34,414 nt of DNA, from the IMG/VR virus record IMGVR_UViG_3300045988_042009; one strand, 5' to 3'. The translations under genes and the position numbers were made by a program. The stretch comes from a virus. Of this stretch, positions 5,361-19,518 are shown piece by piece. The notes under the pieces are model-generated. The model worked only from the letters and a program-made list of their open reading frames with translations, had not been told where the DNA came from and searched no databases. How positions within the stretch are numbered: position 1 is the stretch's first letter; each line of letters starts with the position of its first letter.

Positions 5361-6130
5361 AATACAAATTAGGCGATGAAGTGTATTTAAAGGGGGTAAT
5401 TACAAGCATAAATTCTTGTGCTGAAATTAAGTATCCCTATGAAGTAAAAACGGCAGATGAATTCGTTACGGCGGCAGAAGAATATCTTGAACCTATCAAT
5501 AAATCAGAACTCGGGCACGCAGAAGAAGCACCACGGTATCTTCGGAATATACTAGCACGGCTGCGTGAGTTGCCAGAACACGACCGCAAAGTCTGGATGG
5601 ACGAAATTATGCATGAGTTCGCAAATGACTACGGTTCAGTCAAGTATACACTGGGTCACGATCAAGGCAAGTTTGATGGGGCGGTAGAAGCTGAAAAATC
5701 AAACAAAGTTGTTTTGACGAAAGAAGAGGCAGACTACCTTAATACGTTTGGTTTGTCAAATAAGCACGAAGTTCGCAAGGCATTATATTTCATATCTCGT
5801 TCTGGCTGGGGTTATTCATTGCAAAATGGATACGGTGACAGGAACGAAGGACTTTTGGCAAAAATTACGCATGATGAAGACGATGAAAATTCTACACGTA
5901 CAAAGCTCATCAAAGCTGTACTCTTCGGTTACGATGTGGAGCAGGAGAAGCGATATGAAGTTAAATTAAAAAACACAGGTGATTACCTGGTGAAAACATA
6001 CAATGACAACTATCATTTTTATAACAACATTTACACACAGAACAGAAAACACACCCGCAAAGAGCTTGAAGACGCCGGTTTTGGCTGGGTATTCGACTGC
6101 GAAGGTGTGGAAGTTAGAGAGGTTGAATAA
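5357..6130 (+). CDS. Hypothetical early protein
   Basis: 257 aa. ATGA overlap with the upstream ORF. No motif recognised with confidence. Confidence 0.65.
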   Translation: MKYKLGDEVYLKGVITSINSCAEIKYPYEVKTADEFVTAAEEYLEPINKSELGHAEEAPRYLRNILARLRELPEHDRKVWMDEIMHEFANDYGSVKYTLGHDQGKFDGAVEAEKSNKVVLTKEEADYLNTFGLSNKHEVRKALYFISRSGWGYSLQNGYGDRNEGLLAKITHDEDDENSTRTKLIKAVLFGYDVEQEKRYEVKLKNTGDYLVKTYNDNYHFYNNIYTQNRKHTRKELEDAGFGWVFDCEGVEVREVE

Positions 6131-6295
6131 ATGATTGAAATGATTGAGTGGATTGACGGCAAGATAACCCTCAACAAGCACATGATTGAGGACGAAGGAA
6201 ACCCCTCAGACTTTGAAATCTTTCTTTTGGCAGACATTGATATGCTGACCAAAATCAAGGAAGAATTATTAAAACGGGAGGTGTCGAATGAGTGA
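6131..6295 (+). CDS. Hypothetical 54-aa early protein
   Basis: Hand translated: MIEMIEWIDGKITLNKHMIEDEGNPSDFEIFLLADIDMLTKIKEELLKREVSNE. SD GAGAGG. ATGAGTGA overlap with the next ORF. Confidence 0.5.
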   Translation: MIEMIEWIDGKITLNKHMIEDEGNPSDFEIFLLADIDMLTKIKEELLKREVSNE

Positions 6296-6536
6296 AATTT
6301 TAGGAGCGGTAGCAACACTAGCATTCTTCTTCTTAATCGGCGCATTTGTCAACCACTTAGACTGGCGCAAAGCCAGAAAGCAAGCAGAGCAAGAAGCACG
6401 AGAAGATGAACGCATAGAACTTGAAGCAATGTATGTAGTCTGTGCAATTGAGCACGACCGCAGAGAACGACAACGCAAATTGGCAGAGGCGAGAAAGCAT
6501 AGCACGAAGTCGTTTATAGTCGAAGGGGTGGGATGA
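6288..6536 (+). CDS. Hypothetical protein with N-terminal TM helix
   Basis: 82 aa. ILGAVATLAFFFLIGAFV is followed by a charged helical tail. Confidence 0.55.
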   Translation: MSEILGAVATLAFFFLIGAFVNHLDWRKARKQAEQEAREDERIELEAMYVVCAIEHDRRERQRKLAEARKHSTKSFIVEGVG

Positions 6537-6537
6537 T

Positions 6538-6882
6538 ATGACAACACAAGTAGAACGCATTCGAAATTTTTACAAAGAAAATCCTTCTGCAACTTATGAA
6601 GAAGCAGAACAGGCGATCAATGTGACACAAGGGAATATCCGTTCAAATATCGCAAAAGATATTAAACGTGGTTATTGTACACGCAGTGAAACCGGAAGTA
6701 TAGATTATTCAGCTTACTTCCGTTCGGGAGAAGAACTTTTTGAATTTAGAAATTGGCAAAATGAAGTCAGACGGGAACTGATTGATCAATTGTTAGAAGC
6801 TAATCGACATGAAACGGCAAGCGACCAAATCCGGTTGAATGCTAAAGAAATTAATAAATTACTGAAAGAGGTAACAAAATGA
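6538..6882 (+). CDS. Hypothetical early protein
   Basis: 114 aa. Tightly coupled to its neighbours. Confidence 0.6.
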   Translation: MTTQVERIRNFYKENPSATYEEAEQAINVTQGNIRSNIAKDIKRGYCTRSETGSIDYSAYFRSGEELFEFRNWQNEVRRELIDQLLEANRHETASDQIRLNAKEINKLLKEVTK

Positions 6883-7361
6883 GTTTTTTATATGAATTGG
6901 AAGGGATTTACGCACAGTTGCAATCCATGGAATTAGACGATGAAACATTTCAAGATACTTTAGATAGTATTGATTTTCAAGGGGATTTGGAAAAAAACGT
7001 CGAATATTTTGTAAAAATGTTAAAAAATATTGAAGCTGATGAAAAAATGTTTAAAGAAGAAGCGGTGCGTTTTAAAGAAAAAGAACACGACGCTAAAGCC
7101 AAAAAAGAACGTTACAAAGAAATTATTCGTAAAGCAATGAAAATGAGTAATCAAAAAAAAGTACAAGCTGGATTGTTTACAGTTTCAACACGTAAGAGCG
7201 AAGCGGTTGAAATTTTAGATGAGACAAAAATCCCAGTGTATCTTATGACTGAAAAACATACGTTTACTCCAAATAAAACTGAAATCAAAAAAGCAATCAA
7301 ATCCGGAAAAGAAGTTTTTGGGGCTGTCCTTAAGGAAGGAGAAAGCGTGATAATTAAATGA
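6879..7361 (+). CDS. Siphovirus Gp157-family protein
   Basis: 160 aa. The start MSFLYELEGIYAQL..MELDDETFQDTLDSI and the coiled-coil body match my memory of the Sfi11 gp157 family, which typically opens this replication module. Confidence 0.75.
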   Translation: MSFLYELEGIYAQLQSMELDDETFQDTLDSIDFQGDLEKNVEYFVKMLKNIEADEKMFKEEAVRFKEKEHDAKAKKERYKEIIRKAMKMSNQKKVQAGLFTVSTRKSEAVEILDETKIPVYLMTEKHTFTPNKTEIKKAIKSGKEVFGAVLKEGESVIIK

Positions 7362-7825: not shown

Positions 7826-8981
7826 AGCTGTCCAACGAAGCAACTTACCAACCAATGGAATTTTTTTAGAGGCTCTCGGGGGCAAAGGTAAAACTATTTG
7901 CGCTTTAGCTATCGCTAAACACAAAAAAGCGAAGAAAATTATTATCACGAATAATCGTCTGTCTATTTTAAATGGTTGGATAGATGCCATAAAATTAATG
8001 GATTTTGATAAAGATGTTGAAATTATTGTTAGAACAGACAGATACTTGCAGGACTTAATCTCAAAAGGCTATAAATTAACCTGTGACGTACTTATCATTG
8101 ATGAGTGGCAGAATATGTCGAGTGATAAGCAAACGAGCTTATATCGTAAAATAAAGCGGAAATATACAATTGGACTATCAGCAACGCCAATCCGAAAAAA
8201 AGGACAGAATTTCTATCCCTTAGAAAAAACAATTTTCGGATGGGCGACTCCTAACAGAAAATTTGATTGGCAAAAAGCCCACGGAAAAATGGTCTATGAT
8301 CCGTTTTCTTACTCAAAAGAAAAATGGCAAGACTTTAAGGATTATGAGACTTATATTAGCGGTCTACCAAACTTCTTTCGCTGGGAAGAAATTGAAGAAA
8401 TTGAAAAATCTGTAGAAAACAATGGTTATGACATTAAATTTTATCGAAACACTGTAGAAGTCGGCAATCCAACTTTGCTCAAAATTTTTCGGCAATTGAA
8501 CATAGTAAATGTTAATGGTAAATGCGCTATGGCTAAGCAATCTTTCGGGCGCAAAACATTTGAGCGCTACTTAATGCAGACAGGAGTAGAAGTTGACTTT
8601 CCCAAACTAAAGGCAGTCAATCAAGATACACCGCTACTATTAAAGATAGATGGTTTGATTGAACGAGCGCCGCACGGCATGCTAATTGTCAGCAAATCTA
8701 AACAGGTTGTCAATGTGATTCGCGAACGCAATCCAAATATCGGAATTTGGACAGGAGACGTTCAAGATGGGCTTGATAAACAAGTTGTTGTTGCAACTAA
8801 CCAAGTGTTGGGGGTTGGTGTTGATGGTTTACAGCACAAGTTCAAAACAATTGTCGTTCTCGATCCAGTCGATGAATCTTCCGGTGAGTACGATGATTAT
8901 AGACAATTGTTATGGCGCATAACTGGTTCACGGCAGCAACATGATGTAAATGTAATCGAATTTTATTATAAGGAGAACTAA
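7791..8981 (+). CDS. SF2 DEAD/DEAH-type helicase
   Basis: 396 aa. Motif I GGKGKT, motif II IIDEWQ, motif III GLSATP. TTG start 10 nt after GAGGAGGTG. Confidence 0.85.
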   Translation: MAELQLRKWQTEAVQRSNLPTNGIFLEALGGKGKTICALAIAKHKKAKKIIITNNRLSILNGWIDAIKLMDFDKDVEIIVRTDRYLQDLISKGYKLTCDVLIIDEWQNMSSDKQTSLYRKIKRKYTIGLSATPIRKKGQNFYPLEKTIFGWATPNRKFDWQKAHGKMVYDPFSYSKEKWQDFKDYETYISGLPNFFRWEEIEEIEKSVENNGYDIKFYRNTVEVGNPTLLKIFRQLNIVNVNGKCAMAKQSFGRKTFERYLMQTGVEVDFPKLKAVNQDTPLLLKIDGLIERAPHGMLIVSKSKQVVNVIRERNPNIGIWTGDVQDGLDKQVVVATNQVLGVGVDGLQHKFKTIVVLDPVDESSGEYDDYRQLLWRITGSRQQHDVNVIEFYYKEN

Positions 8982-8985
8982 CAAA

Positions 8986-9795
8986 ATGACTTTTAAATTA
9001 CCAGAAAATAAACCACAAGTGCCAAAAGACACGCCACGGAATTTCTTTATTTACGGTGAGACTATGAGCGGTAAGTCTTATTTGGCGAACGAATTTCCAA
9101 ATCCTATTGTTTTAAATACAGACGGAAATGCAGAAGCAAATAGTGTACCGAGCATTCAACTAGTAAATGAAAAAAACGGTCAAGGGCGCATTACTAACTC
9201 AGTGATTAAACAATTAAGTGAGATATTGTTAGCTTTGCAAACACAAAAGCACTCTTACGAAACAGTTGTTATTGATGTTATTGACGATGTTATTGAGATG
9301 ATAAAAATTGCAGTTTGTGACGAACTAACGCCAAGCGGTAAACCTCGTATTAAATCACTTTCTGAAATCCCCTATGGAAAAGGATATGATTTCTTTAATC
9401 AATCAATTACAGAATTGGTAATTGACTTGAAGGCTCTACCAATGAACGTTATTTATATCAGCCGTCAGATTTCAGAATATGATGACAACGGAAATGCGAC
9501 TAAGGATAAGCCGAGCTTAAAAGACAAGTATGTCAACCTTATCAATGGAAACTCAGACTTGATGATTCATACTGAAAAAATCGGCAATAATTACAATCGA
9601 GAAGTCGATCGTAGACGAAAGGCATATTACGTGGATCAAGTTGATGACAAAGCAATTTTGAAAATTTTAAGTACTGTACGAGGGGCTTTAGATCCCGCTA
9701 AGGATACAAGCAAAACAAAAAAAGAAGTTTCAAAAAAAGAAAAAGTTAAAGAGGCAGCAAAAAAAGAAACTGTTTCTGATGATGAACTATTTTAA
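8986..9795 (+). CDS. AAA_24/Sak4-like RecA-fold ATPase
   Basis: 269 aa. Walker A is FIYGETMSGKS and Walker B-like is VVIDVID. Lys/Glu-rich tail. Conserved position after the helicase. Confidence 0.8.
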   Translation: MTFKLPENKPQVPKDTPRNFFIYGETMSGKSYLANEFPNPIVLNTDGNAEANSVPSIQLVNEKNGQGRITNSVIKQLSEILLALQTQKHSYETVVIDVIDDVIEMIKIAVCDELTPSGKPRIKSLSEIPYGKGYDFFNQSITELVIDLKALPMNVIYISRQISEYDDNGNATKDKPSLKDKYVNLINGNSDLMIHTEKIGNNYNREVDRRRKAYYVDQVDDKAILKILSTVRGALDPAKDTSKTKKEVSKKEKVKEAAKKETVSDDELF

Positions 9796-9816
9796 AATAA
9801 ATAAAGGAGAAAACAC

Positions 9817-10323
9817 ATGAGTTTATTAGATATTGCAAAATCAATTAAAAAAGAAGGATTTGACCCTCGCAAAGATAGCACGAATGGGCCTGCGCCAATC
9901 CCCGCAGGGACTTACCCGGTTGTTTTGAAAAAAGCAATTTTTAACATTGCAGAAAGTCGTTGGGAAAGTATTCAGTACCAATTTGAAATCCGCGGTGGGG
10001 ATTACAATGGTCGAACAGAATTTGCAAGTTTTGGAACTTTAGACGAATGGAAGGGTAAGAGTCTGAAGTGGGCAATTGAACGTACAATGAAATTTTTCAT
10101 TAAAGCCTTAGTGTTAGCTGGTGATAATATGACTGGTAACGAAGAAGATGGCAAGGCACTTGAAGAAGCTTTGCAGCGCAAAGCAGTAGGTTCTTACTAC
10201 AATCTTGTTATCACAGAAAATAAAGGCAAAGATGGGCGGACATTCCGCAGTTATGATTTGGAAGAGGAAGTTACTCAACCAATTACAGAAGCTGATATTG
10301 ATGATGATGTCTTACCGTTCTAA
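9817..10323 (+). CDS. DUF669-family protein (putative ssDNA-binding)
   Basis: 168 aa. The pattern PIPAGTYPVVLKKA...YQFEI.GGDYNGR and the acidic C-terminal DDDVLPF tail are typical of this module. Confidence 0.7.
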   Translation: MSLLDIAKSIKKEGFDPRKDSTNGPAPIPAGTYPVVLKKAIFNIAESRWESIQYQFEIRGGDYNGRTEFASFGTLDEWKGKSLKWAIERTMKFFIKALVLAGDNMTGNEEDGKALEEALQRKAVGSYYNLVITENKGKDGRTFRSYDLEEEVTQPITEADIDDDVLPF

Positions 10324-14180: not shown

Positions 14181-14543
14181 ATGAAGAAAATCAAGTGTTC
14201 AATTTGTGGTAAAAAGTTTGAACCCACATCCAGCAGGTCGAAATATTGCAGTGAGAAATGCCGTAAGGACGGGGCTAGAGAGAATCAGCGGAAACTGATG
14301 AAGAAAAAGCGTGCGGCAAAAAAACAGGAAAAAATCAAAAAAGTTAATCCTAACATTTTGCCTTCCAAAAAACGCAAAAAAAGTAAAAATTTTCTAAAAC
14401 ACTATCGAGATTTTAAAAAGCGGATTTTGGCCAACGAGGAAAAATTTAACTTTGTCAGCAGAACATTGGTCGAAGGTATCGAAGTGCACGAAGATAACTT
14501 TGAGCAACTAGTAACCGAAAAAATAAAGGAGCAATCAAAATGA
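14181..14543 (+). CDS. Zn-ribbon, highly basic DNA-binding-type protein (possible small terminase substitute)
   Basis: 120 aa. CSICGKKF...YCSEKC gives C-x2-C-x14-C-x3-C, followed by a Lys/Arg-rich segment. The position suggests TerS but the sequence is not typical of TerS. Confidence 0.6.
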   Translation: MKKIKCSICGKKFEPTSSRSKYCSEKCRKDGARENQRKLMKKKRAAKKQEKIKKVNPNILPSKKRKKSKNFLKHYRDFKKRILANEEKFNFVSRTLVEGIEVHEDNFEQLVTEKIKEQSK

Positions 14544-15805
14544 ATTACTATGGAATGGGCTATCTTAGGAGAAAACTAGCCCTCTATCAATTGGGCGTCA
14601 AAAAGCGCTATCGATATTATGCGATGGCAGATAGAGAAGCCTCTCGCAGTATTGTTATGCCAGATAATGTACGAGATATGTATAGGTCAGTTTTAGGATG
14701 GACAGCCCACGGAGTGGATGCACTGGCCGATCGGATTATTTTCCGTGAATTTGCAGATGACGACTTTAATGCGACAGAAATTTTTAATGCTAACAATCCA
14801 GATATTCTGTTTGATACAGCTATTCAGTCCGCCTTGATTGCATCTTGTTGCTTTGTGTATATCATGCCTGGCAATCAGGATGAGATACCTAGAATGCAAA
14901 TCATTGAGGCTAGTCGAGCGACTGGAATTTTAGATCCAACAACATTTTTACTTACGGAAGGCTATGCGGTCTTAGAACAAAATGAGTACGGTGTACCAAC
15001 CCTTGAAGCGTATTTTACAAAGGATGCAACCTGGTACTATCCAAAATATGGCAATGAATATTCTATCAGCAATCCAACCGGTCAGCCGTTATTGGTCCCT
15101 ATTATCCATCGACCGGATGCAGTACGTCCGTTTGGCCGTAGTCGTATCACACAAGCTGGGATGTACCAGCAAAAAGCTGCTAAACGTACACTTGAGCGGG
15201 CAGAAGTAACTGCAGAATTCTATTCATTCCCGCAAAAATATGTGTTAGGGCTTAGTCAAGAAGCAGAACCAATGGAAAAGTGGAAAGCGACTGTGTCAAG
15301 CTTATTGCAGTTTACTAAAGATGAAGATGGGGACAGTCCAACGGTTGGTCAATTCACAACAGCTAGCATGTCACCGTTCGTTGACCAGCTTAAGATGTAT
15401 GCCGCTTTGTTTGCGGGTGGTACAGGATTGACTATGGATGATTTGGGTTTTCCATCTGACAATCCGTCATCAGTAGAGGCCATCAAAGCAGCTCACGAGA
15501 ATTTGAGAGCGGCAGGACGAAAGGCACAGCGGTCATTTGCTTCTGGTTTACTGAATACTGCTTATGTGGCAGTTTGCTTGCGGGATGAGTTCCCATATTT
15601 GCGCAACCAATTTATGGCAACATCAGTCAAATGGGAGCCGCTCTTTGAGGCGGACGCAAACACATTGACTATGATTGGTGATGGTGCTATTAAGCTCAAT
15701 CAAGCCATTCCTGGATTCGTTGGAAGTGATACTATTCGTGATTTGACAGGTATTAAGGCATCAGATGAGCCACTTTCTACAGTAGGTGGTGACGGAAATG
15801 GTTGA
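14540..15805 (+). CDS. Portal protein (SPP1 Gp6-like)
   Basis: 421 aa. Size, position before a MuF-family gene, and the conserved-looking stretch FPQKYVLGL...GQFTTASMSPFVDQLKMYAALFAGGTGLTMDDLGF..NPSSVEAIKAAHENL. Confidence 0.8.
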   Translation: MNYYGMGYLRRKLALYQLGVKKRYRYYAMADREASRSIVMPDNVRDMYRSVLGWTAHGVDALADRIIFREFADDDFNATEIFNANNPDILFDTAIQSALIASCCFVYIMPGNQDEIPRMQIIEASRATGILDPTTFLLTEGYAVLEQNEYGVPTLEAYFTKDATWYYPKYGNEYSISNPTGQPLLVPIIHRPDAVRPFGRSRITQAGMYQQKAAKRTLERAEVTAEFYSFPQKYVLGLSQEAEPMEKWKATVSSLLQFTKDEDGDSPTVGQFTTASMSPFVDQLKMYAALFAGGTGLTMDDLGFPSDNPSSVEAIKAAHENLRAAGRKAQRSFASGLLNTAYVAVCLRDEFPYLRNQFMATSVKWEPLFEADANTLTMIGDGAIKLNQAIPGFVGSDTIRDLTGIKASDEPLSTVGGDGNG

Positions 15806-17192
15806 GGACGTCATCCCTGGGCTACTTAAGCAAATCAAGACAGATTTCGAGCGTGGTCAGCTAAGCAGTTCAACGATTAAAGGGCTACTCGATAAACTCG
15901 GACAGAAACAAGCAAACTATTTAGATGCAAATGACTACGCTATAGAAATGGGTGAAATTCTTTCTAAGGTTCTAGGAAGCTCTCTAAGCAACGACACATT
16001 GCCAGACGGTAAAATGTATTACAATATCGCAAAACGACTCTTAAACGAAACATTAGGCAGGAATTATGAACTTGTGAGTAGTTATGCTAGTGATGTTCAG
16101 AAACAATTGAATGAACGCGCTAATATTCACCTCAAAACACAAATACCTGCATTGAATCAGGATAGAATTGATGGAATCGTCAATCGTGTTTCTTCTGAAC
16201 AGGATTTTGATGATATTAAGTGGATTTTGCAAGAACCAATTGTTAATTTTACTCAAAGCATTGTGGATGATAGTATTGAGAAAAATGCAGAATTTCATCA
16301 CAAGGCGGGATTGCAACCTGAAATTGTTAGAAAGTCAGTCGCTAAGTGCTGTGATTGGTGTCAAGAGGTTCAAGGTATCTATAAATATCCACGAGTTCCA
16401 AAAGATATTTATCGGAGACATCAACGCTGCCGTTGCATAGTTGATTATGACCCTAAAAACGGGAAAGTTCAGGATGTTTGGAGTAAAATATGGCGGAAAC
16501 AAAAGGATAGTGATAAGATTAAAGAAAGGAAAGGGTTAAACAAAGAAGAGAATATCAGCGTTGTTAGAAAAAGCGCGTTGCAACATGGAATTAAAGTTAA
16601 TCCTATCAAGAGATCTAAAGTAAAAAAGACTGAAGAAGCAATTATTAAAGCTGTTGGAGGGGGAGACCAGACAAAGGGGTCTTGCTCTTCTCTTGCGCTG
16701 GCCTATATTGGCAATAAAGCAGGTTTTGATGTTTTGGATTATCGTGATGGAAAAAGCAGAACTTTTTTTGCAAGCATGCTAAACATCAAAAACATTAGTG
16801 AGTTGCCGAGTGTTCATTCGCATGTTGTTGCAGATACAAACGACTTTACTGCTGTGAAAAAATTAATTGGTCAAATGCAAGATGACAAAGAATATTATTT
16901 AGCAACAGGAAAGCATGCGGCAATTGTGCGAAAAAAAGAGGGGCGGTTCCAATACTTGGAATTGCAAGCTCCTTTTGAAGGTAACGGGTTTAAACCTATA
17001 ACCAATGCAGTTTTAAAAGAGCGCTTTGGTTGTCAACGTTCTCATTCAGTGTATGGACAAAAATTACAAGTTCCGAATGTATTAATAGATTCTGATAGTT
17101 TAGGAGAAAATGAAGAATTTCAAAAGATTCTAGGATTTATTAATACTAAGAAAGGTCAGCAAAATAAAGGAGATAAGGGCTATGTCAAATAA
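15798..17192 (+). CDS. MuF/SPP1-gp7 head-morphogenesis protein fused to a C-terminal Cys/His (C39/papain-like) domain
   Basis: The MuF signature CCDWCQEVQG...RRHQRCRCIVDY ends near aa 220. A linker follows, then DQTKGSCSSLALAYIGNKAG (Cys300, TGC at 16683-16685), GKHAAIV (His377) and YLELQ (Glu392). Numbering is from the ORF-track start at 15786; ATG 15798 is the more likely start. Confidence 0.8.
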   Translation: MVEDVIPGLLKQIKTDFERGQLSSSTIKGLLDKLGQKQANYLDANDYAIEMGEILSKVLGSSLSNDTLPDGKMYYNIAKRLLNETLGRNYELVSSYASDVQKQLNERANIHLKTQIPALNQDRIDGIVNRVSSEQDFDDIKWILQEPIVNFTQSIVDDSIEKNAEFHHKAGLQPEIVRKSVAKCCDWCQEVQGIYKYPRVPKDIYRRHQRCRCIVDYDPKNGKVQDVWSKIWRKQKDSDKIKERKGLNKEENISVVRKSALQHGIKVNPIKRSKVKKTEEAIIKAVGGGDQTKGSCSSLALAYIGNKAGFDVLDYRDGKSRTFFASMLNIKNISELPSVHSHVVADTNDFTAVKKLIGQMQDDKEYYLATGKHAAIVRKKEGRFQYLELQAPFEGNGFKPITNAVLKERFGCQRSHSVYGQKLQVPNVLIDSDSLGENEEFQKILGFINTKKGQQNKGDKGYVK

Positions 17193-17481
17193 CGATGATT
17201 TTTTAGAAGAACTATCTGAATTAGCTAATCAAGAAGATGACAGAATATGGTCTGAATCTCATTTAGATGGTTATAGTGACTTTTATAAAGAAAATGAAGC
17301 TTCGAAAGTTTGGTGGATTGATAAACTAGATGCTATAGGTGAGCATTTGTTTAGTTTTGACCAGAAAAAAATCTACAACTTGTTTGTGGACTATCCACAT
17401 AATATGATGGACAAGGAAGTTGAAATTTTTGATAAAGAAAATCCGTATTGGAAAGAATTTTTATCAAATAGAAAAAAATAA
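17182..17481 (+). CDS. Small acidic protein; candidate cognate immunity or inhibitor for the MuF C-terminal domain
   Basis: 99 aa. Overlaps the MuF stop by 11 nt. AAAGGAG SD. Rich in Asp and Glu. Followed by a hairpin and T-run. Confidence 0.6.
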   Translation: MSNNDDFLEELSELANQEDDRIWSESHLDGYSDFYKENEASKVWWIDKLDAIGEHLFSFDQKKIYNLFVDYPHNMMDKEVEIFDKENPYWKEFLSNRKK

Positions 17482-17489
17482 TCAGAATG

Positions 17490-17512
17490 GCGCTCGAAAG
17501 GGTGCTTTTATT
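17490..17512 (+). terminator. Weak intrinsic terminator after the MuF/acidic-ORF pair
   Basis: GCGCTC-GAAA-GGGTGC (6 bp, two G-U) followed by TTTTATT. Confidence 0.4.
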
Positions 17513-17534
17513 ATGCTCAAAAAGGAGAAAGAAA

Positions 17535-17786
17535 ATGAAATACAGAAAGAAACCTGTGGTGATTGAAGCGGTAAAATGGACAGGGAACAACGTCAAAGAC
17601 CTTGCTAATTTTATGGGTGAGTCACAAATTAACTATGAAATAGAAACTCGTAAAATGTTCATCAGAACATTAGAAGGGATTATGGAAGCATCGGTCGGCG
17701 ATTACATTATCAAAGGCGTGCAAGGTGAATTTTATCCATGCAAGCCGTATATCTTTGCTGAAACATACGAAAAAACGGAGGAATAA
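17535..17786 (+). CDS. Small phage protein (KKPVVIEAVKW ... GDYIIKG..GEFYPCKP pattern)
   Basis: 83 aa from ATG 17535, which lies after AAAGGAGAAAG. The ORF-track start at 17487 lacks an SD. Confidence 0.6.
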   Translation: MKYRKKPVVIEAVKWTGNNVKDLANFMGESQINYEIETRKMFIRTLEGIMEASVGDYIIKGVQGEFYPCKPYIFAETYEKTEE

Positions 17787-18040: not shown

Positions 18041-18102
18041 GAGGTGATCCAATGTCTCCCAGCGATAGGGTTATCATGCGATGACGATTGAAAGGAAAGG
18101 TT

Positions 18103-19518
18103 ATGGTTACTAAAACTAAGACTAGATTTGGCAATCAGCATCCTACTCAATCGGTAACTTTACATTATACTGATAGCTTGGCTCAGGAAGCCATAGAGTT
18201 TTATCAAAAGTCTGGTCGGGATTGTTATCCTTGGCAAGTATCTTTGCTTGAAGCTATTATGGCCATAAATGATGACGGTCTGTGGGTGCATCAAAAGTTT
18301 GGTTATGCTATCTCTCGACGAAACGGTAAGACAGAAGATGTCTATATTGTGGAGTTGTGGGGTCTGCATAAAGGACTTAGAATCCTGCACACCGCTCATC
18401 GTATCAGTACGTCCCATTCATCTTTTGAGAAACTTAAAAAGTATTTGGAAGACATGGGCTATGTGGACGGTGAGGACTTTGTTTCAAACAAAGCAAAGGG
18501 ACAAGAGCGTATTGAGTTCAAGGAAACTGGAGCGGTTATCCAATTCCGTACCAGGACATCAAATGGTGGTCTGGGTGAGGGATTTGACCTGCTTATCATT
18601 GATGAAGCCCAAGAGTACACTGCAGAACAGGAATCAGCTCTCAAGTACACGGTAACAGATAGCGAGAATCCGATGACTATCATGTGCGGGACGCCGCCAA
18701 CGATGGTATCAACAGGAACTGTCTTTGCTAGTTACCGCAAAAAAGTTCTGGCTGGCAACAGCGAGTATTCGGGCTGGGCAGAGTGGTCTGTCGAAAACAT
18801 CCACGACATCAACGATGTGGATGCTTGGTACTTGACTAATCCGTCAATGGGCTATCATCTCAACGAACGGAAGATTAAAGTCGAACTCGGAGATGACGAA
18901 CTGGATCATAATATCCAGCGTCTGGGTTATTGGCCGACCTTCAATCAGAAATCAGCCATCTCAGAAAAAGAATGGTATGACCTTAAGGTTGAACCAATGC
19001 CTGGACTTAAAGGTAAGCTCTTTGTTGGAATCAAGTACGGACAAGACGGGACCAATGTTGCAATGGCAATTGCTGTGCGGACGGATGACAAGCGAATATT
19101 TGTTGAAAATATTGATTGTGTCTCTATTCGGAATGGCATGCAGTGGATTATCAATTTTATCAAATCTGCAGACATTGAGAAAATTGTTGTCGACGGTGCA
19201 AGCGGACAAGAACTGCTAGCAGCAGAGATGAAAGAATTTGGAATCCAGAAACCAATCTTGCCAACAGTCAAGGAAATTATCACGGCTAATTCGCTTTGGG
19301 AGCAGTCGATTGTGCAGCAAACGCTTTGTCACAATGACCAGCCTTCGCTGACTGCAGTTGTGACCAATTGTGACAAACGCAACATTGGCTCAAATGGTGG
19401 CTTTGGCTATAAGTCGCTATATGACGACCGAGATATCAGTTTAATGGACAGCGCTTTGCTGGCGCACTGGGCATGTTATACAACGAAGCCTCGTAAAAAG
19501 CAAAAAAGTTATTACTAA
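18103..19518 (+). CDS. terL: Terminase large subunit
   Basis: Walker A-like SRRNGKTE and Walker B LLIIDEAQE, with a C-terminal nuclease-type half. ATG 18103 is preferred; TTG 18088 is possible. Confidence 0.85.
   Translation: MVTKTKTRFGNQHPTQSVTLHYTDSLAQEAIEFYQKSGRDCYPWQVSLLEAIMAINDDGLWVHQKFGYAISRRNGKTEDVYIVELWGLHKGLRILHTAHRISTSHSSFEKLKKYLEDMGYVDGEDFVSNKAKGQERIEFKETGAVIQFRTRTSNGGLGEGFDLLIIDEAQEYTAEQESALKYTVTDSENPMTIMCGTPPTMVSTGTVFASYRKKVLAGNSEYSGWAEWSVENIHDINDVDAWYLTNPSMGYHLNERKIKVELGDDELDHNIQRLGYWPTFNQKSAISEKEWYDLKVEPMPGLKGKLFVGIKYGQDGTNVAMAIAVRTDDKRIFVENIDCVSIRNGMQWIINFIKSADIEKIVVDGASGQELLAAEMKEFGIQKPILPTVKEIITANSLWEQSIVQQTLCHNDQPSLTAVVTNCDKRNIGSNGGFGYKSLYDDRDISLMDSALLAHWACYTTKPRKKQKSYY

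Follow-up and report, generated by a model that had tools for sequence, protein, structure and literature searches.

A putative toxin–immunity cassette of a papain-fold Cys/His domain and DUF7675 on a MuF3-type minor head protein of a Streptococcus phage

The MuF3 gene, its C-terminal domain and the overlapping DUF7675 gene

The virus record IMGVR_UViG_3300045988_042009, analyzed here as one stretch of 34,414 nucleotides (referred to as the window), encodes a MuF3-type minor head protein that ends in a Cys/His domain, followed by an overlapping open reading frame (ORF) for a small acidic protein of the Pfam family DUF7675 (Table 1). An earlier sequence-only reading of this stretch had assigned the gene pair to the MuF kind of polymorphic toxins, with a papain-like Cys/His cargo and an immunity-like partner. 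This core of the reading is supported by the model fold of the domain, the exchange of C-termini between related phages, the linkage of the two genes and the existence of arrays of orphan partner genes, and the positions it gave for the ORFs, for their 11-nt overlap and for C300, H377 and E392 in the motif were all correct; other parts of it are modified below.

Since homologs of the minor head protein begin there, the ATG at 15798 (M5, with an 8-nt overlap at the portal stop codon) is favored over the listed GTG and is probably the true start of the gene; the protein would then comprise 464 amino acids and all residue numbers would be lower by four. In a BLASTP comparison the N-terminal part is 58% identical to gp35 of phage SM1 (aa 5-252, E 2e-103), and PHROG 2494 ('minor head protein') matches aa 5-281 with E 2e-129. 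The full-length protein matches phrog_7104, and its first ~280 residues match 'minor head protein' profiles that continue differently. Searches of Pfam and NCBIfam returned no match anywhere in the 468-aa protein, PF04233 included, which fits the fact that the MuF3 family, defined on SM1 gp35 in 2017, has a separate profile built from the first 250 residues of that protein rather than one based on PF04233 (Jamet et al., 2017; PMC5576092). The MuF domain had been thought to end at about aa 225, shortly after the stretch HQRCRCIVDY (aa 212-221 of the 468-aa protein). Homology to MuF3 proteins extends to aa 252, however, and the junction therefore lies at nt 16541/16542. The full-length architecture of 463 amino acids is very common (3345 matches).

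The C-terminal domain is basic, with an isoelectric point (pI) of 9.5. The segment GGGDQTKGSCSSLALAYIGNKA sets the positions of D294, Q295 and C300. Among 16 full-length homologs (59-91% identity) D294, C300, H377, E392 and Q394 are invariant, and D, C, H, E and Q are still invariant among 61 diverse homologs with 40-58% identity. Of the four residues that had been proposed as a motif, C300, H377 and E392 are thus retained, while Q295 varies in the same 16 homologs (Q/M/K/R/L) and drops out as a conserved oxyanion-hole candidate. A search with aa 251-468 against 1.84 billion cluster representatives retrieved the domain in 961 clusters at 50% identity, 870 of them with E <= 1e-10. Of the 150 proteins listed, which range from 178 to 1033 aa in length, nearly all terminate with the domain or within ~3 residues of its end.

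To the AlphaFold2 (AF2) model of the domain, computed from the 61-homolog alignment, a predicted local distance difference test score (pLDDT) of 93.2 and a predicted TM score (pTM) of 0.91 were assigned. In this model the Cys stands at a helix N-terminus, the His at the start of a strand and the Glu and Gln on the strand paired with it, which is the canonical papain arrangement. A Foldseek comparison with the PDB, as suggested by the sequence-only reading, yielded almost only papain-fold Cys enzymes as neighbors, with weak scores: UfSP, SpvD, Josephin, staphopain, OspI, SseI, phytochelatin synthase and the protease domains of lymphostatin and Mcf. Among viral models (BFVD) the top neighbor is a member of the same family annotated 'minor capsid component' (TM 0.90), followed by two proteins annotated 'Papain fold toxin 1, glutamine deamidase' (E 5e-5 and 7e-3, TM 0.43-0.49) and then by actinophage MuF-fusion proteins; annotations of actinophage neighbors also include 'capsid maturation protease' and 'capsid maturation protease and MuF-like fusion' (E 2e-3 to 1e-2). 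Single-sequence and profile searches against NCBIfam and PDB sequences gave no match, and a match to ArtB at E 0.18 was dismissed as noise. Based on the model and the conserved residues we describe the domain as a putative papain-fold thiol enzyme of an undescribed family, which may be a peptidase, a deamidase or a transglutaminase. The proposal of a C39-type or papain-like peptidase holds for the papain-type fold but not for C39, for which neither a profile match (61 members, best 25 of 54 families) nor a named representative among the top 50 PDB neighbors was found. The term peptidase itself is not established either, as 'glutamine deamidase' is the annotation of the nearest named neighbors in structure.

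The partner protein is acidic, as had been noted, with a pI of 4.5. Its ORF has a GC content of 28.7% compared to 36-44% in the neighboring head genes, a compositional dip, and overlaps the MuF3 gene by exactly 11 nt (17182-17192). The conserved but poorly structured tail of the Cys/His domain (Q459, K461, G462 and G465) is at the DNA level the Shine-Dalgarno sequence and start codon of the partner (window 17155-17192). We compared this overlap between the window and loci from distant taxa (L080, L082-L084, L086, L127, L166, L169 and L170). The Shine-Dalgarno sequence reads AAAGGAG or AAGGGGG across the loci, and the two genes share the 11 nt ATGnnnnnTAA/TGA in loci that range from streptococcal phages to clostridia outside phages, with a GTG start in 2 of 11 loci. 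As the ribosome-binding site within the tail and the overlap are conserved across phyla, translational coupling is part of the cassette. The unrelated cassette of SM1 likewise has an overlap of 11 nt.

DUF7675 consists of a conserved 65-residue core, preceded in streptococci by a variable acidic N-terminal helix, and its AF2 model has a pLDDT of 89. Foldseek, which had been suggested for the 99-aa protein as well, returned a best PDB match with E 2.2, and the fold is therefore without known relative. The hairpin with a T-run reported downstream of the partner ORF exists but is weak and occurs at chance frequency (6 such sites in the region versus 5.3 expected), and we rejected it as a terminator.

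The window represents an SM1-like temperate Streptococcus siphophage with a tyrosine integrase. The nearest deposited phage is the near-identical prophage Javan278 of S. intermedius F0413, with 97.7% DNA identity across 15955-17520. The head and packaging module is arranged in the order HNH endonuclease, 120-aa zinc-ribbon protein, portal, MuF3 protein, 99-aa ORF, phrog_419 ORF, DUF6275, large terminase, scaffold and major capsid protein. No prohead protease was recognizable in the phage, although a scaffold protein is present. The phrog_419 ORF, of unknown function, is listed at 17487-17786 and probably starts at ATG 17535, which has a strong AAAGGAG site ahead of it, rather than at 17487; it is missing at the equivalent place in SM1, and its linkage to the cassette is not consistent.

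Table 1. Coordinates of features in the window and in the other sequences discussed in the text.
Feature	Position	Strand	Evidence or remark
Tyrosine integrase	107..1249	-	PDB 3nkh integrase match, E 5.5e-36
Portal	14540..15805		phrog_104; directly upstream of MuF3 gene
MuF3-type minor head protein, as listed	15786..17192	+	468 aa, GTG start
MuF3-type N-terminal (capsid/portal-targeting) domain, aa 1-252	15786..16541	+	58% identity to three sister-phage proteins; PHROG match
C-terminal cassette domain, aa 253-468 (~215 residues), putative toxin	16542..17192	+	AF2 model, Foldseek neighbors
Cys300 codon, predicted nucleophile	16683..16685	+	invariant; first residue of model helix 50-61
His377 codon, predicted general base	16914..16916	+	invariant; first residue of model beta-strand 127-134
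Glu392-Leu-Gln394 codons ('ExQ' motif), third-catalytic-residue candidates	16959..16967	+	E and Q invariant; strand paired with His strand
Shine-Dalgarno AAAGGAG of partner ORF	17166..17172	+	within conserved K461-G462 codons of the domain tail
99-aa acidic DUF7675 protein, putative immunity protein/inhibitor	17182..17481	+	Pfam PF24723, E 1e-33
Weak hairpin and T-rich tail after partner ORF	17489..17515	+	stem-loop 17489-17506, 7 pairs including G-U, GAAA loop, then TTTATTAT
Large terminase (TerL)	18088..19518		downstream of cassette
S78 prohead protease-Cys/His fusion, L078	3194-4633
DnaJ-Cys/His fusion, L081	1418-2983		probably chimeric assembly
Non-phage locus L169	5615-11189
Non-phage locus L171	5668-11186
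Non-phage locus L084	244-6204
Non-phage locus L170	4286-11195
331-aa protein with overlapping 159-aa ORF, L170	11313-12777		right after Cys/His toxin and DUF7675
Partner-gene array, L099 (Streptococcus sp. F0441)	5677-6992
Partner-gene array, L174 (satellite phage Javan361, MK448454.1)	8808-9979

Exchange of C-termini and carriers of the domain

Polymorphic toxins follow a defining logic in which one trafficking domain is combined with alternative toxins and one toxin is found on several trafficking domains. The first aspect is apparent from three related phages, whose proteins SM1 gp35, Javan578_0038 and OlisA2_0027 are each 58% identical to the window protein over aa 5-252 and have nothing in common with it beyond. 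The C-terminus of SM1 gp35 (403 aa, partner gp36 of 59 aa) was described as a nuclease toxin homologous to a MafB toxin and accompanied by its immunity module (PMC5576092). That of Javan578_0038 (359 aa, partner Javan578_0039 of 70 aa) is not annotated, and that of OlisA2_0027 (408 aa, partner OlisA2_0028 of 63 aa) is annotated 'bacterial toxin'. The SM1 partner gp36 is unrelated to the 99-aa protein of the window, while the portal and capsid proteins of the two phages share 67% and 41% identity, respectively. Homologous head genes joined to unrelated C-termini at one junction imply that the same head type works with any of these cassettes, which argues against a morphogenetic role of the Cys/His domain. 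Swapping at one junction, which the sequence-only reading had proposed to look for, is thus seen at aa 252 in three related phages, and the C-terminus is not invariant.

The domain and DUF7675 are tightly linked in phages. In 79 of 80 viral contigs (domain identity 51-100%) DUF7675 lies directly downstream and overlaps the stop codon of the domain, the single exception being a sequence that is cut 27 nt past the stop. The partner is also present in all 17 GenBank phage records that contain the domain, amongst them Butyrivibrio virus Ceridwen with a domain identity of 36%. The phage proteins that carry the domain together with DUF7675 comprise MuF3, MuF1 (PF04233), MuF2 (PF06152), VG15 and the S78 prohead protease. 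In the latter case, found in contig L078, the S78 serine protease is fused to the Cys/His domain via a linker ('NPYHDPTNGRFT...') and encoded within an HK97-type head module of the order TerL, portal, S78-Cys/His fusion, DUF7675 and capsid protein; this fusion is a second kind of capsid-interior carrier. An apparent in-frame fusion to DnaJ in the 6-kb contig L081, where GrpE-DnaJ lies upstream and streptococcal phage genes downstream, joined at a 'TPQKLTEEQ'-like stretch common to both, is probably a chimeric metagenome assembly and was not counted among the carriers.

The domain also occurs on proteins outside phages. These non-phage proteins of ~330 aa consist of a helical N-terminus of ~95 aa ('MAKYAISEEG...') and the Cys/His domain and are followed by DUF7675 with the 11-nt overlap. 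Their loci contain genes for TerD, a kinase, a PP2C phosphatase, VWA and LRR proteins and small helical ORFs, and they encode an FtsK/SpoIIIE ATPase of 1111-1452 aa, whose best NCBIfam matches, far below the cut-offs, are EccC/EssC of the type VII secretion system (T7SS). The ATPase is followed by tandem putative toxins of ~330 aa with a common helical N-terminus, one of them ending in Colicin-DNase/WHH and one in the Cys/His domain with DUF7675 behind it, then by small WXG100-like ORFs, TerY_C and a transglutaminase. In L169 the gene directly upstream of the carrier shares its N-terminus of ~100 aa (38% identity, E 6e-15), and the C-terminus of this sibling is a Colicin-DNase/WHH domain that scores above the Pfam cut-offs. 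A T7SS-like export may be the secretion route of the non-phage carriers. Assignment of the N-termini to LXG or WXG proteins was not adopted, as the PDB profile search found generic helical bundles and the NCBIfam and Pfam matches were below threshold; it is left as suggestive. Locus L170 additionally holds E2-CBASS, JAB and ThiF genes. In the same locus a 331-aa protein with a weak Peptidase_C39_2 match (E 6e-4) is encoded together with an overlapping 159-aa ORF, and these may be another toxin-immunity pair.

DUF7675 genes without the domain

To survey DUF7675 irrespective of the domain, representative genomes were scanned and the best 80 of 127 confirmed loci were analyzed; they belong to Streptococcus, Peptostreptococcus, Clostridia, Fusobacterium, Negativicutes and many Bacteroidota. 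An intact domain gene adjoins DUF7675 in 21 of the 80 loci, fragments of the domain alone are found nearby in 7, and no toxin is encoded within 6 kb in 52. Six of the 21 loci with an intact domain gene are convergent (L122, L130, L132, L138, L148 and L155, from metagenome-assembled genomes (MAGs) of Prevotella, Bacteroidales and Clostridia), with the MuF-domain gene and DUF7675 placed tail to tail at a distance of 4-12 nt. In this arrangement DUF7675 closes a different operon, so that its expression could be uncoupled from that of the late genes.

Orphan copies are found on mobile elements as well as in chromosomes. Eight Streptococcus satellite-phage records (MK448454.1, MK448364.1, MK448356.1, MK448485.1, MK448360.1, MK448357.1, MK448358.1 and MK448515.1; hosts S. 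oralis, S. equinus, S. pasteurianus and S. pyogenes) lack the toxin domain but have a DUF7675 gene close to the right end. In 21 loci of mitis-group streptococci and at the right end of the satellite Javan361, homologs of SM1 gp36, Javan578_0039 and OlisA2_0028, in other words of the partners of the alternative cassettes described above, are encoded no more than a few kb away from orphan DUF7675. Nine loci contain all four partner kinds, which span ~1.3 kb where all four are present (array coordinates are given in Table 1 for L099; the further arrays are L100, L102, L103, L105, L107, L109, L111 and L112). The arrays are located either beside a VapE-type primase, a marker of satellites, or between an ABC-transporter operon and ctsR-clpC. 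The SM1 gp36 homologs in them belong to Cys_rich_CPCC and have 93% identity. When the neighbors of orphan DUF7675 were compared to known Imm families, Cys_rich_CPCC alone was recognized; the identification of the array genes as MuF3 partners thus derives from their match to the phage partner ORFs and not from Imm families. No literature describing an array of this kind for MuF toxins was found. The occurrence of DUF7675 as an orphan and in arrays fits an immunity gene.

A few orphan DUF7675 genes occur in housekeeping contexts of very distant taxa, namely in two Candidatus Saccharibacteria MAGs (L097 and L121), in Hoylesella nanceiensis DSM 19126 (L158) and in Granulicatella (L120), where the gene is located between hflX and rnc-smc. 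The Saccharibacteria cases could be due to binning contamination.

Interpretation as a toxin–immunity cassette and its alternatives

Taken together, we consider it probable that the window contains a toxin-immunity cassette of two genes, attached to the C-terminal end of the MuF3-type minor head protein encoded by an SM1-like temperate Streptococcus siphophage. The MuF module (aa 1-252) would position a small number of copies at the portal on the capsid interior, by analogy to gp7 of SPP1 (cited in PMC5576092). The cargo, as a glutamine deamidase or peptidase related to the Tox-PL1 clade, would modify or cleave a cytoplasmic bacterial protein, and the translationally coupled DUF7675 protein would most likely bind the enzyme stoichiometrically and thereby inhibit it in the cell that produces it. 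During infection, phage DNA and MuF fusion would leave the capsid together, and the fusion would remain active in the recipient until the newly arrived genome supplies DUF7675; cells, lysogens and satellites in which DUF7675 is already expressed would be protected.

Many temperate phages of human-associated Firmicutes and Bacteroidota encode MuF toxins. The cargos characterized so far are of two types, Apk2 and Bxa (PMC11699363, PMC12226406), and predicted 'glutamine deaminase' MuF toxins with modeled immunity proteins are already known (PMC11699363). The novelty of a papain-like MuF cargo had moreover been overstated in the sequence-only reading, since a computational study had already described prophage MuF proteins fused to Tox-PL1 papain-fold domains (Zhang et al., 2012; PMC3482391). 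The window protein resembles the MuF3 pair SM1 gp35/gp36 in its N-domain, its position after the portal, the SM1-type head module, the variable C-terminus at one junction, the small overlapping downstream ORF and the temperate lifestyle of the phage. It differs from known MuF toxins in its papain-fold Cys/His cargo, as opposed to the nuclease of SM1, the (p)ppApp synthetase Apk2 and the ADP-ribosyltransferase Bxa, and in its partner DUF7675, which is unrelated to gp36 and to the immunity proteins of Apk2 and Bxa.

With Tox-PL1 (PF15644) the domain shares the papain-type fold, the C-terminal position in polymorphic toxins and the MuF carriers, and Tox-PL1 is its best named BFVD neighbor. Tox-PL1 has the signature NC-H-DxQ, MuF and T7SS-WXG carriers and the immunity family Imm35 (PMC3482391). 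The signature of the window domain, SC-H-ExQ, is similar but not identical, with Ser for Asn before the Cys and Glu for Asp; furthermore, the partner is DUF7675 instead of Imm35, and PF15644 is neither matched by the window protein nor among the profiles matched by 61 members of the domain family (best 25 of 54 families with E <= 1). We therefore treat the domain as papain-fold and Tox-PL1-like, not as a demonstrated member, and regard it as at best a distant sister family. To C39 peptidases it is similar in the order of Cys, His and acidic residue and in the general papain fold, but it lacks the profile match, a conserved Q295 and an ABC-transporter context. The non-phage carriers resemble LXG/WXG toxins of the T7SS in their helical N-terminus, their position downstream of an FtsK/SpoIIIE ATPase, the flanking helical ORFs of ~90-100 aa and the DNase sibling. 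They differ in that no LXG or WXG100 profile matches above threshold and that their loci are of a TerD/TerY-kinase-phosphatase type rather than canonical ess loci, and the window protein itself is phage-borne and lies outside any such locus. In summary, the toxin family and its pairing with DUF7675 are uncharacterized within the known MuF polymorphic-toxin kind, and what is new here is an abundant domain family absent from Pfam, DUF7675 as its partner, additional carriers and the poly-immunity arrays.

Several observations weigh against the interpretation as a toxin-immunity cassette. The matches to solved papain-fold structures are weak (TM 0.3-0.4, best PDB E 8.7e-4), and no Pfam match of the domain, Tox-PL1 and C39 included, was found for 61 members among the best 25 of 54 families with E <= 1. 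In the non-phage loci, the EccC/EssC match of a 1112-aa ATPase (E 1e-17) and the WXG100 matches of the small ORFs (E 0.01-0.1) are far below the family cut-offs. DUF7675 is mentioned in no paper that we found. For a pair engaged in an arms race, the sequences of both toxin and partner vary unusually little, which would also fit a conserved phage function. Lastly, the putative immunity gene is part of a late operon, where a lysing producer would have no evident need of it.

The high conservation of both proteins is in keeping with an alternative in which the domain is injected as a host-takeover or anti-defense effector that aids infection or the choice between lysis and lysogeny, rather than as a growth toxin, and orphan DUF7675 is an anti-phage decoy or inhibitor. 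The delivery logic would be identical to that of a toxin, low-toxicity peptidase-type MuF cargos have been proposed to steer the lysis-lysogeny decision (Jamet et al.; PMC5576092), and the satellite phages on which orphan DUF7675 is found often carry anti-phage functions. However, there is no evidence for a defense-system target, the cassette is interchangeable with the nuclease cassettes of sister phages, and the pair also occurs on non-phage proteins encoded next to secretion-type ATPases and a DNase sibling, an arrangement that follows the classic logic of interbacterial toxins. We therefore judge this alternative to be unlikely, albeit the best placed of those considered.

Less probable still is a role of the Cys/His domain as a protease in morphogenesis or auto-processing, which matures the head or cleaves itself off MuF, with DUF7675 as a timing inhibitor or assembly chaperone. 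Such a role could be invoked for a phage that has a scaffold and no recognizable prohead protease, the more so as the full-length architecture is highly conserved, BFVD neighbors include actinophage capsid maturation proteases and MuF-like fusions, and some Tox-PL1 copies are releasing peptidases according to Zhang et al. (PMC3482391). Yet SM1, Javan578 and OlisA2 combine homologous head genes with unrelated C-termini, so that the domain is dispensable for this head type, and in L078 it would be redundant, as the same polypeptide already includes a genuine S78 prohead protease. For the window protein, Pfam and PHROG searches gave no protease match. Nor would a head protease be expected on non-phage proteins adjoining a DNase-bearing sibling, or its partner be kept in chromosomes and satellites without head genes nearby. 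A non-catalytic structural or adaptor domain that binds, for instance, DNA, the portal or another cargo, with DUF7675 as a co-packaged small head protein, has a precedent in the C-terminal extension of VgrG, known as an adaptor and not a toxin (cited in PMC5576092), and would suit a domain without sequence match to any enzyme family, but we consider it highly improbable given that Cys, His, Glu and Gln are invariant at papain-type active-site positions in homologs of 40% identity and on unrelated carriers, that the structural neighbors are nearly all thiol enzymes and that the orphan distribution of DUF7675 is unlike that of a structural head protein.

Within the toxin-immunity interpretation, the arrays lead to a further and more tentative proposal, which we put forward as a possibility that is rather less than evenly supported: MuF toxins would be delivered into recipient cells and impose strong selection on them, and mitis-group streptococci and Javan361-type satellites would therefore keep a poly-immunity array against the cassettes of helper phages of the SM1 type. 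Along with any satellite packaged in a helper capsid, the MuF toxin of the helper would enter the recipient but the helper's immunity gene would not, and the satellite would have to bring its own antidotes. Orphan immunity arrays near systems such as the type VI secretion system, contact-dependent inhibition and Rhs (PMC3482391, PMC11699363) are similar in that stand-alone immunity-type genes for alternative cassettes are clustered without toxins; they differ in that the genes described here match phage MuF3 partners and are found on Javan361-type satellites or at a fixed chromosomal site of the mitis group. The gathering of antidotes for four interchangeable cassettes in the absence of the toxins is circumstantial evidence for toxin action in cells that did not produce them.

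The locus adds a third, abundant class of MuF cargo, a papain-fold thiol enzyme with predicted catalytic Cys and His and with DUF7675, formerly a domain of unknown function, as its partner. If the poly-immunity proposal is true, the arrays would provide the first functional rationale for the role of MuF toxins and a genetic handle on it.

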